Virus record (IMG/VR): IMGVR_UViG_3300033388_000817
Length of the DNA: 20,000 nucleotides
Reading direction: 5' to 3' (one strand)
From: an uncultured virus (IMG/VR IMGVR_UViG_3300033388_000817)
Lineage: Duplodnaviria > Heunggongvirae > Uroviricota > Caudoviricetes > Crassvirales
The notes under the pieces were generated by a model, which was given only the letters and a program-made list of their open reading frames with translations, did no database searches and was not told the DNA's origin. Position numbers and translations under genes: made by a program. This document shows positions 10,915-13,819 of the stretch, piece by piece (within the stretch, counting starts at the first letter, position 1; every line of letters starts with the position of its first letter).

Positions 10915-12597
10915 CTATTCCCATGGCATTGGTTCGTTGTTAATACTCACTGGTTCATGAGGTATAAAACAACCTGATTTTGGCTCCCATTTAAAATGAG
11001 CTTCAGCACCATTTTCACCAAGGTTTTGAAACTTAACTTTTAAAACTTTAGCTTTAACTGTTTTGGCTTCATAATCTCTGTGAACTAATATGCCGTGATA
11101 ACTAGCATCATACCATTCACCACCACCTTTAATGTTGTACATTGTTGGTTCTTCCATTTTACCATCTTTGTCTTTATACATTTTAGTCGGGTGAGCTACA
11201 ACAAAAACTAAAACATCAAACTTTTTAGCAAATACTTCTATCTTAGTTAAATATTCCATTGTATACCTATTAACGTCTTCTGTCTTACAGTCAACGTCTC
11301 TAACTTTATTAAACGGATCTATAACGAGGCATTTAATACCTTTACGTTTAACTAGTTCAGCTCCTTTACGTAATACAGATTCTAACGTGTAGCGTTCCAT
11401 GTCAATATGGAAGTAATTAGTATTACAATGATTTGCTATTTGATTCCATTTATCACCGTGTATATCTGCTGACGTTGGCATACCTTCCCAGGTTTTACGC
11501 ATTAGCTTGTGAGCATGAAGATACGTCGGCGCATTCTCTGGTGACGCAAAAGCCGTTTTCCAACCGTAGTTACGATTATACCCGACAACCATTTGATCAA
11601 CAAAGTCTGATTTGCCGCTACTAGGTATACCAGTGACAGTAATAAATTGACCGGTATAAGTAGAAAATATGTCGTCAAAATTGGATAAACCAACTTGATA
11701 TCCTTTCTTAAAGCCATTGCGGACAAAGTCAGTAACCTCATCTTCAATATCCTTGAATGTTGTAACATTTTCGAGTGGTACGGGTCTCGCGGAGGTAATA
11801 CGCTGTACCAGTTTTTCTTTTCCATGTTTTTGTAAGTATTCATTAGCATCTTTACAGTCGTCAAACGTTGCTAAGTAACAAACTTCAGCTCCAAGTCTAC
11901 GGACTAATTCTGATTGTAATGCTTGCCCTGCTTCATCTGAGTCAACTGCTAATATGATTTTTTCTTTGTCTTCAAAGTAATCAATACAATTATCAAGATA
12001 ATCTAAGTTGTTATTATTAAGAGTAGCTCCATTAGGAACAGATACAACATTTGGTATACCTGCTTCGTGTAAAGCTAACACATCCATTTCACCTTCTGTT
12101 ATGATACAATATTCATAACCTACTATGCTATTTATATTATAGAATACTTTTTCAGCACCCTTATATAATTTAAAGTTTTTTCTTCCATCACGATACTTAA
12201 CATTAATAAGTTGATCACCCATGAAATAATTAAACTGTATTGTATTCTCGGTCTTACCGGTTTGTGGCATATACTCAGAACCTTCACCAACTTCTAAGTC
12301 GATCAAGGTCTGAGATCCTATACCTCTTGTTTTAAACCATTCAATTACTTTATCACTTAAAAATTCAGGGTATTCGGTATTGCTAGGCGGACCTGGTGGT
12401 CTTACGTATTCTTTTTCACTAGCTCCTTTACGTTGATAAGTGTGTAACTGAAATGATGTGTTACAATTATGACAAGTACCGAGACCCCGTTCCCAATCAT
12501 AAGACGCGCATTTAGCCTTTTGATTCTTGGGTTTTCTATCGTGAGAACAAAGAGGGCATATACCCTGCTTCTTTCCCTCTTCATGTCTGCATTTAAT
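10915..12597 (-). CDS. Bifunctional primase-helicase (Twinkle/T7 gp4-like) with anomalous 5' end
   Basis: The frame is open from 12597. It contains a Zn finger CPLC...CHNC, TOPRIM ITEGEMD and DSDEAG, Walker A GIPSSGKS, Walker B LVIDPFN and VAHP. There is no in-frame ATG upstream of the Zn finger; the ORF track's 12306 start is an internal TTG. Confidence 0.9.
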   Translation of the reverse strand: MKCRHEEGKKQGICPLCSHDRKPKNQKAKCASYDWERGLGTCHNCNTSFQLHTYQRKGASEKEYVRPPGPPSNTEYPEFLSDKVIEWFKTRGIGSQTLIDLEVGEGSEYMPQTGKTENTIQFNYFMGDQLINVKYRDGRKNFKLYKGAEKVFYNINSIVGYEYCIITEGEMDVLALHEAGIPNVVSVPNGATLNNNNLDYLDNCIDYFEDKEKIILAVDSDEAGQALQSELVRRLGAEVCYLATFDDCKDANEYLQKHGKEKLVQRITSARPVPLENVTTFKDIEDEVTDFVRNGFKKGYQVGLSNFDDIFSTYTGQFITVTGIPSSGKSDFVDQMVVGYNRNYGWKTAFASPENAPTYLHAHKLMRKTWEGMPTSADIHGDKWNQIANHCNTNYFHIDMERYTLESVLRKGAELVKRKGIKCLVIDPFNKVRDVDCKTEDVNRYTMEYLTKIEVFAKKFDVLVFVVAHPTKMYKDKDGKMEEPTMYNIKGGGEWYDASYHGILVHRDYEAKTVKAKVLKVKFQNLGENGAEAHFKWEPKSGCFIPHEPVSINNEPMPWE

Positions 12598-12601
12598 TTA
12601 A

Positions 12602-12907
12602 TTAAAATGGTAAATCATCATCTTTTCTATATATTTCCCCCTGCTTAGGTTGGTCTTGTCTTGGTGCTGGTTCAACATTAGTACCATTAGTCCACACAAC
12701 TTGTACGTTTCCTAAATATACTTTAGCAACTTTAGCCTCTCTTTCTTCCTTTGATTGTGCTACAACCACAGGACCGCTATTACCAAATTGATCTAACTCA
12801 TCATTTATGGTTATTGTTATCGGTAGGTATTTACCTTTTTTACCTTCAATTATTTTATCCTTAGGTATATTGTTAAGGTTAATACTAGTTTTAATTATAC
12901 TTGCCAT
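12602..12907 (-). CDS. Single-stranded DNA-binding protein-like
   Basis: Beta-rich 101-aa protein with an acidic DDDLPF C-terminal tip, located between the recombination genes and the primase. Confidence 0.7.
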   Translation of the reverse strand: MASIIKTSINLNNIPKDKIIEGKKGKYLPITITINDELDQFGNSGPVVVAQSKEEREAKVAKVYLGNVQVVWTNGTNVEPAPRQDQPKQGEIYRKDDDLPF

Positions 12908-13086
12908 TATGCATATTGATTTATTTGATTAAACATCCTAGCTAACTGATCTTTTGTCGCGTTAGTAGTTCTTCTTATATTGTCTACAGCTTTTACGTGC
13001 GTTTGGTTTTTGTAAAAATTATTTACATCAGTTTCTAATCCTGTTACACTGCACACTTTTGTTTGGTTTTTTCTGGTTCTTGCCAT
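12907..13086 (-). CDS. Hypothetical 59-aa protein
   Basis: MARTRKNQTKVCSVTGLETDVNNFY... starts 1 nt after the upstream stop and has a TAATG overlap downstream. Confidence 0.7.
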   Translation of the reverse strand: MARTRKNQTKVCSVTGLETDVNNFYKNQTHVKAVDNIRRTTNATKDQLARMFNQINQYA

Positions 13087-13087
13087 A

Positions 13088-13819
13088 TTATAAGGTTTTA
13101 TTAATAAAATATTGGGTAGGATCAAAGCCTTCAGACTTATAAAATAACTCATAAGCCTGAACTGCTCTTTCAACTTTGTCCTTACCACGTTCATAAAATT
13201 CTGGTGAGCAGTCAAATATACCTATTTGGCCTGTATTTTTATCAATGGCAATAAATACCATTTCATAACCAAATAGTTTACTATAAATATAAGCTTGTGA
13301 GTCATAATTATACTTGGAAGCTGAATATTTAAATTTATTAAGATCTGCTGTCGTCTTTAAATCAACAACTAGCTTTTCTGAATGATTTATAATATCTGCT
13401 TTACCTTTCCATTTATGACCTTCAAGTTCTGTAATGCCAGGCACTTCATATTCGCATTGCCCTTCGCGTATAAGATCATAACATATTTTATTAGCTAACA
13501 TTTTATCTGTTAGTTTTTCTATATTATCAACCTCATGTTGCAGCAGGCACAACTCACCGCCTGACATCTCTTTATACACTTTTGTGTTTCTAGTTGTAGC
13601 CTCTATAATCTTAAACTTTTTAAGTTTGTCAGGTTCTAGAATAGCTGTATGGAAATAACCACCAACTAAAAACGCGGGTCTAGCTTCTGATGCTTTACCT
13701 AGCGCTAAAGGGTTTGTAAGCAAGGTACTGATATCTGAGTTACTAAGATACTTTTTACCAAAGGCACCGTAGTAATGTTCGTCATCACGTAGCTTTTCAA
13801 TTGCTTTTTCTTTATTCAT
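13088..13819 (-). CDS. PD-(D/E)XK exonuclease, RecE/exodeoxyribonuclease VIII (DUF3799)-like
   Basis: YLSNSDI, GGYFHTAILEP, KGKADII, VDLKTT and YNYDSQAYIY; adjacent to ERF. Confidence 0.85.
   Translation of the reverse strand: MNKEKAIEKLRDDEHYYGAFGKKYLSNSDISTLLTNPLALGKASEARPAFLVGGYFHTAILEPDKLKKFKIIEATTRNTKVYKEMSGGELCLLQHEVDNIEKLTDKMLANKICYDLIREGQCEYEVPGITELEGHKWKGKADIINHSEKLVVDLKTTADLNKFKYSASKYNYDSQAYIYSKLFGYEMVFIAIDKNTGQIGIFDCSPEFYERGKDKVERAVQAYELFYKSEGFDPTQYFINKTL

Follow-up and report, generated by a model that had tools for sequence, protein, structure and literature searches.

By its sequence, the primase-helicase gene in the 20,000-nt stretch of phage DNA that we analyzed (hereafter the window) is a disrupted copy of an ordinary primase-helicase of the T7 gp4 type. 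The gene has lost its start codon, and comparison with relatives supports a private, frame-shifting deletion of 47 nt just before the zinc finger as the explanation. We lean, with due caution, toward a real loss of these 47 nt from the gene's 5' end, very recent and private to this record.

The primase-helicase gene in its genomic setting

The window carries a phage replication and nucleotide-metabolism module with a G+C content of ~33%. The module includes genes for an ATP-dependent DNA ligase, a sigma factor, an Erf-like annealing protein, an exonuclease, an SSB-like protein and the primase-helicase, as well as thymidylate synthase, MazG, a Holliday-junction resolvase and both ribonucleotide reductase subunits, with an amidase gene on the opposite strand. 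No second primase is present within the 20,000-nt window. Relatives of the window are IMG/VR contigs of 35-130 kb from marine samples, and because Cellulophaga, Tenacibaculum and Flavobacterium are the hosts of the closest cultured phages, the host of this phage is likely a member of the Flavobacteriia. A scan of positions 12000-13300 for promoters and terminators found promoter-like sites to be no commoner than in shuffled sequence, and its sole terminator-like match (12566-12553) falls within coding sequence. One related IMG/VR contig of 129,537 nt (the source of loci L033 and L080) contains the primase-helicase region twice, ~62 kb apart; it could be a concatemer, or two related genomes may have been assembled together.

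The body of the primase-helicase gene, recognized by translation, Pfam and PHROG, comprises 555 codons and a stop with no usable start (10915..12582, minus strand). The zinc-finger frame starts at GAA 12582, reads EEGKKQGICPLC...CHNC and is stop-free to 10915. Pfam identifies Toprim_2 (E 1.2e-14), Toprim_4 (E 1.5e-11) and DnaB_C (E 6.2e-07; 29.5 bits against a cut-off of 27) on this open frame, in agreement with an earlier note on this DNA that described it as running unbroken from the zinc finger into the TOPRIM and helicase regions. The frame also matches PHROG 239, 'DNA primase/helicase', with an E value of 1.2e-83. Its Cys4 zinc domain (CPLC...CHNC) is present, with the N-terminal leader (residues 4-19) deleted; across 108 aligned family members, the zinc cysteines C28, C31 and C56 are found in 108/108 and C59 in 105/108. 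The zinc, TOPRIM and DnaB/RecA-type helicase elements are thus all in place; what is missing is one uninterrupted ORF that has its start codon before the zinc domain.

What precedes the zinc finger is a remnant start, ATG CAG ACA followed by TGA (12581..12592, minus strand), recognized from the sequence and from relatives. The ATG (12592-12590) lies nine bases past the stop of the SSB-like gene, and the TGA occupies 12583-12581, so that, as both the sequence and the ORF translation confirm and the note had stated, this well-placed ATG specifies only Met-Gln-Thr before a stop. Upstream, the zinc-finger frame is shut by TAA 12600-12598, after which the sequence reads ATT (12597) AAA TGC AGA CAT. 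The ATT is indeed the only start that the note could offer on the near side of the in-frame TAA, and we find no ATG, GTG or TTG ahead of TTG 12306. The first canonical in-frame starts (12268..12306, minus strand) are TTG 12306 (codon 98) and ATG 12270 (codon 110), both of which lie inside the primase RNA-polymerase domain, beyond the zinc domain; judged from these positions, a product from either would be without a zinc domain. As the ancestral ATG is out of frame and no ATG, GTG or TTG occurs before codon 98, we regard the window gene as a disrupted member of its family.

A second ORF, of 60 aa and out of frame with the gene, covers much of the same region (12402..12584, minus strand), and its ATG 12584 overlaps the TGA (ATGA). 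This ORF is a by-product of the deletion, in which the zinc-finger region is read in the wrong frame, and its exact sequence is absent from the public protein collection. A similar wrong-frame reading of the zinc finger makes up the first ~48 residues of one family member of 249 aa (P0206), which are 51% identical to the 60-aa ORF, with the rest in the correct frame; P0206 is a further public sequence in which the frame of this gene region is disrupted. We also considered a -1 shift out of the 60-aa ORF (frame B) at A AAC CCA, noted by inspection, and rejected it: its product would lose the first CxxC, and the heptamer belongs to the ancestral coding sequence.

The SSB-like gene immediately upstream (12602..12907, minus strand; stop 12604-12602) translates into 101 aa with an acidic tip, DDDLPF*, its 3' end reading GAT GAT GAT TTA CCA TTT TAA. 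The protein is assigned to PHROG 24909, of unknown function, and a Pfam search returned no match for it. Its linker is QGEIYRK (within 12602-12660, minus strand); relatives are rich in Ala, Pro and Gln there, and the DDDLPF tip is kept. The exact 101-aa protein occurs on four contigs in the public protein collection, and a 186-nt contig from run X3 is identical to the window across 12590-12775. The odd SSB tail is therefore real and not an error. A 35-mer from this unusual tail has 0 matches in IMG/VR and 0 in GTDB genomes.

The two genes are separated by a 9-nt AT-rich spacer, TTAAATTAA (12593..12601, minus strand), which stands ahead of the ancestral primase start and holds ATT 12597-12595. 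Across 77 loci, the distance from the SSB-like stop to the primase ATG ranges from 1 to 384 nt; it is 9 nt in the window and 9-10 nt at several loci. The gap between these genes is a variable cassette site (window 12593-12601; L082 1190-1500; L083 1200-1500; L108 about 170-330), and in the closest records it contains a tiny Cys-rich ORF (CxxC...CxxC, ~24-40 aa) along with a 23-aa ORF. From the SSB-like gene to the primase body, the window is 243 nt shorter than G001 and G002. We examined this shortfall as a possible second lesion and discarded the idea, ~196 nt of it being natural cassette variation. The 180-nt spacer that separates the exonuclease stop from the start of the SSB-like gene (12908-13087) is strain-variable, present in some and missing from others: two X4 contigs join 12907/12908 directly to 13088.

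Comparison of the 5' end with relatives

A protein search of a large collection returned thousands of relatives, of which we compared the best 120 (89-96% identical, 568-575 aa). Every one of these 120 homologues begins MQT-[T/I/V]EINGFLIDEFNQ[H/Y]KL-EEGKKQG.CP.C in a single frame, as in MQTTEINGFLIDEFNQHKLEEGKKQGICPLC. From IMG/VR, 404 related stretches were confirmed and 80 were kept for reading at the DNA level. The frame is continuous in 77 of the 80 loci, where ATGCAGACA is followed by ~48 more bases and then by GAAGAGGG; in the other three, the 5' end was missed by the regular expression. The segment is likewise kept in all 14 IMG/VR contigs that share with the window an exact 29-mer over the SSB stop and primase ATG; seven of the 14 are outside the 80. 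In total, 85 IMG/VR contigs were read at the DNA level. In the closest allele, L108, ~116 nt past the junction are identical to the window, and ACAGAGATCAATGGATTTTTGATTGACGAGTTCAATCAACATAAGCT stands between ...ATGCAGACA and TGAAGAGGG.

Set against these sequences, the window is without exactly 47 nt between ...ATGCAGACA and TGAAGAGGG: codons 4-18 are gone, and so are the first two bases of codon 19. The junction falls between A 12584 and T 12583 (12583..12584, minus strand), where relatives carry 47 nt or more, and the TGA formed there consists of the last base of ancestral codon 19 and the GA of codon 20. These comparisons bear out the proposal in the earlier note that a deletion just after codon 3 had removed an N-terminal stretch: relatives read MQT, 16 residues and then EEGKKQG.CP.C in one frame, and the extra residues after MQT that the note anticipated are continuous in the proteins (120/120), the loci (77/80), the 29-mer contigs (14/14) and L108 alike. 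Conservation of the ATG-CAG-ACA-TGA arrangement, which the note had named as a sign against a deletion, was seen in 0/85 contigs and 0/120 proteins.

In the alignment with L108, the borders of the junction share no bases. The junction is therefore unambiguous and without microhomology, and hence suggests no obvious slippage mechanism. Inside the deleted stretch, relatives such as L009 and L001 have an 8-bp perfect hairpin, TTGATTGA-N5-TCAATCAA, with an EcoRI-like center. The hairpin does not establish a mechanism of deletion: the base of its stem does not lie at the deletion ends, and flanking direct repeats are absent.

The importance of the lost segment can be gauged from its conservation. 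Searching 1.84 billion cluster representatives with HMMER yielded 6738 relatives at E <= 0.001, and we aligned the intact homologue with 107 full-length members that are 31-87% identical (n = 108). Positions 11-19 are occupied in 91-100% of the 108 members; position 14 is F, L, W or Y in 89/108, position 18 is Gly in 61/108 and position 19 is I, L or V in 96/108. An EINGF..D..N motif is kept in the primase/helicase of Cellulophaga phage phi10:1, which is 43% identical. The AlphaFold2 model built on the 108-member alignment (mean pLDDT 92.4, pTM 0.80) has a β-strand at residues 9-13, and residues 11-20 have a mean pLDDT of 91; in T7, the zinc-binding domain is made up of four β-strands. Because it is conserved family-wide and includes a predicted strand, the deleted stretch is very probably part of the zinc-domain fold. 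Two distant family members, P0121 and P0148 (485 and 525 aa), are called from just past the zinc domain. At the other extreme of length, members of 900-1318 aa, among them P0124, P0125, P0153, P0163, P0216 and P0257, match in two or three stretches, a pattern that suggests inserted elements, possibly inteins.

Past the junction, the 555 downstream residues of the window include 0 private residues in an alignment of 196 unique sequences; for the 195 other sequences, the 90th percentile is 5 and the maximum 26. There is therefore no sign of relaxed selection, and the lesion is either very recent or an artefact, which agrees with the note's view of an otherwise intact gene and a recent lesion, if any. 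We also checked the whole record against the two closest IMG/VR records, at ~90% nucleotide identity over ~16.6 kb. All gaps whose length is not a multiple of three are compensated within 15 nt or are intergenic, and with no other frame-breaking indel in ~16.6 kb, the record is not generally error-ridden.

The junction pattern itself has 0 matches in IMG/VR and 0 in GTDB species genomes, and its only match among JGI metagenome contigs lies in a GC-rich coding sequence that is unrelated and matches by chance. Four marine runs were compared as contigs rather than as reads, each with at most 0.47 of the sampled window words. Contigs from these runs break at 12582 and at 12584, with loose ends that correspond, in reverse complement, to both ends of the segment missing from the window; in one X4 contig of 192 letters, other letters replace base 12583, and 111 and 33 letters fit on either side. 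Among the contigs listed for the four runs, a minority of all their pieces, none bridges the junction of the window, a result that is not evidence of absence. The four runs show the intact form in nature and are silent on the deleted form in the source of the record. They also reveal an extremely microdiverse marine population, with hundreds of short branching contigs per run.

Exact look-ups in the public protein collection gave a further comparison. Seven neighboring proteins each have exact copies on 3-18 contigs, and the 463-aa TTG form and the 451-, 435- and 390-aa ATG forms of the broken gene have none, although a gene caller's start may differ from ours. The look-up was also empty for thymidylate synthase with a start of our choosing, and the choice of start therefore matters in such exact searches. 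That the neighbors are present exactly and the products of the broken gene absent may point to near-identical contigs with an intact gene; the contrast is only suggestive, because the gene caller may have picked another start.

Readings of the disrupted start

The earlier note had left room for expression of the gene through ATT initiation or a +1 shift at ACA-UGA. This part of its reasoning did not hold up, the ATG-CAG-ACA-TGA arrangement being conserved in no relative, and we regard functional non-canonical expression as quite improbable. Initiation at ATT 12597 (giving M-KCRHEEGKKQGICPLC...) or at ATA 12561 would produce a functional, N-terminally shortened primase-helicase. The start codon of infC is AUU, and a conserved in-frame AUU start of this type would be the precedent; the relatives of the window gene start at ATG instead. 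The ATT in the window is in frame, comes just after the in-frame TAA and would retain all four zinc cysteines. The probable hosts are moreover Flavobacteriia, the nearest cultured relative infecting Cellulophaga, and a study on Bacteroidetes describes translation initiation without Shine-Dalgarno pairing (PMC6847099), so that an AT-rich leader may suffice. Yet this ATT belongs to a leader, AATTAAATTAAATG, that is kept in most of the 77 loci and in which it is out of frame; it is in frame in the window because 47 equals 2 mod 3, so it does not count as a selected start. Ribosomes would be captured by a strong ATG that this leader has 5 nt farther downstream, and the product would be without residues 4-19, which are conserved family-wide and include a predicted zinc-domain strand. 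A search of PMC6847099 turned up no passage on AUU, non-AUG or GUG start codons. We consider functional initiation at either codon very unlikely.

A programmed +1 ribosomal frameshift at ACA-UGA, which would join MQT to EEGKK..., resembles prfB (RF2) in its geometry: the window, like prfB, has an in-frame UGA with the protein continuing in the +1 frame, and the stop codon would sit in the A site. The shift site, however, is found in no relative and so cannot have been selected. According to a report on prfB, its shift requires a slippery CUUU for re-pairing of the peptidyl-tRNA, mutation of the CUUU abolishes the product, and efficiency in F. johnsoniae is only ~7% with a proper site (PMC10798248). 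The window differs from prfB in having no such CUUU, in an arrangement shared with no relative and in its creation by a private deletion. Both hallmarks of the prfB type, a site conserved in orthologues and a slippery CUU-U P-site codon, are accordingly missing. By inspection, ACA-U gives no re-pairing (CAU), the site is just three codons from the start, and the product would again be without residues 4-19. A functional shift here is, in our judgment, exceedingly improbable.

The weightier question is whether the lesion existed in the phage. An artefact of library preparation, sequencing or assembly, with the true gene of the phage intact and starting MQT-TEINGF..., is a serious contender, though we give it rather less than an even chance. 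The lesion is private (0/85 related contigs, 0/120 proteins), its junction is absent from IMG/VR and GTDB and matched in JGI by chance only, no decay is seen downstream of it, and it strikes a gene expected to be essential. The population is extremely microdiverse, and with hundreds of short branching contigs per run, assemblies of it are error-prone. Seven neighbors are found exactly on 3-18 contigs versus 0/5 candidate products of the broken gene, and the 8-bp hairpin in the deleted stretch could favor template switching by a polymerase in vitro. What speaks against an artefact is that the borders have no repeat or shared k-mer, and a de Bruijn assembler would therefore have needed reads that contain the junction; the absence of any other frame-breaking indel in the ~16.6 kb compared points the same way.

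A real deletion is the reading that we prefer. It would have cut out the zinc-binding domain's conserved leader, TEINGFLIDEFNQHK(L), and the frame shift would make ribosomes starting at ATG 12592 produce Met-Gln-Thr and stop at the TGA made by the junction. With the frame shifted and this TGA in place, no full-length primase-helicase would come from the window copy; at most, TTG 12306 or ATG 12270 could give fragments that lack the zinc domain, or ATT 12597 could give traces of product. We infer that the deleted molecule existed in nature as a loss-of-function variant, either a dead end or a mutant that co-infecting intact relatives carried along.

Comparison with T7 gp4 and meaning for phage populations

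The gene 4 primase-helicase of T7 (63-kDa gp4A and 56-kDa gp4B), like the window gene, unites a Cys4 zinc domain, a TOPRIM RNA-polymerase domain and a DnaB-type hexameric helicase in one polypeptide. The homologue P0001, 96% identical to the window frame, matches the T7 gp4 structures 5ikn, 6n7i and 1q57 with E values of 4e-19 to 3e-17 over residues 143-561. T7 gp4 differs from P0001 in that the sequence similarity stops short of the zinc domain. T7 also produces a 56-kDa form of gp4 without the zinc domain (PMC2910064). By analogy, this zinc-less form could be the best model for a product from TTG 12306 or ATG 12270. T7, however, makes its short form from an internal start dedicated to it and has the full-length protein as well, whereas in the window the full-length protein has been lost through the lesion; and in contrast to a gp4B-like start at the domain boundary, the TTG at codon 98 and the ATG at codon 110 lie inside the primase domain.

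The nearest cultured relative, gp026 of Cellulophaga phage phi10:1 (Assiduviridae), shares 43% identity with residues 4-556 of the intact homologue. Its annotated start, M-EINGFTVDEYNVHKIKDG...CPKC, includes the same pre-zinc-finger leader that is missing from the window. The relationship is otherwise distant: the phi10:1 gene is intact, and its neighbors are methyltransferases rather than an SSB-like gene.

An ATG with an early stop and the gene continuing in the +1 frame looks like recoding, and the case calls for caution in this respect, as comparison with relatives identifies it as a private deletion. Annotators should flag the gene as disrupted or compare the record with its reads; neither an ATT start nor a frameshift should be assigned to the gene. 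Should the deletion be both real and the majority form in the sample, the window would represent a defective genome or primase-dead 'cheater' belonging to an abundant, highly microdiverse marine phage of the Flavobacteriia type. Intact co-infecting relatives would supply this genome with primase-helicase in trans, and it may itself still contribute a helicase-only fragment like the 56-kDa form of T7; we think this combination unlikely. If the deletion is real and frequent in the sample, it would provide a natural example of a replication-defective phage genome kept by co-infection, and as such a case of moderate interest to phage population biology.
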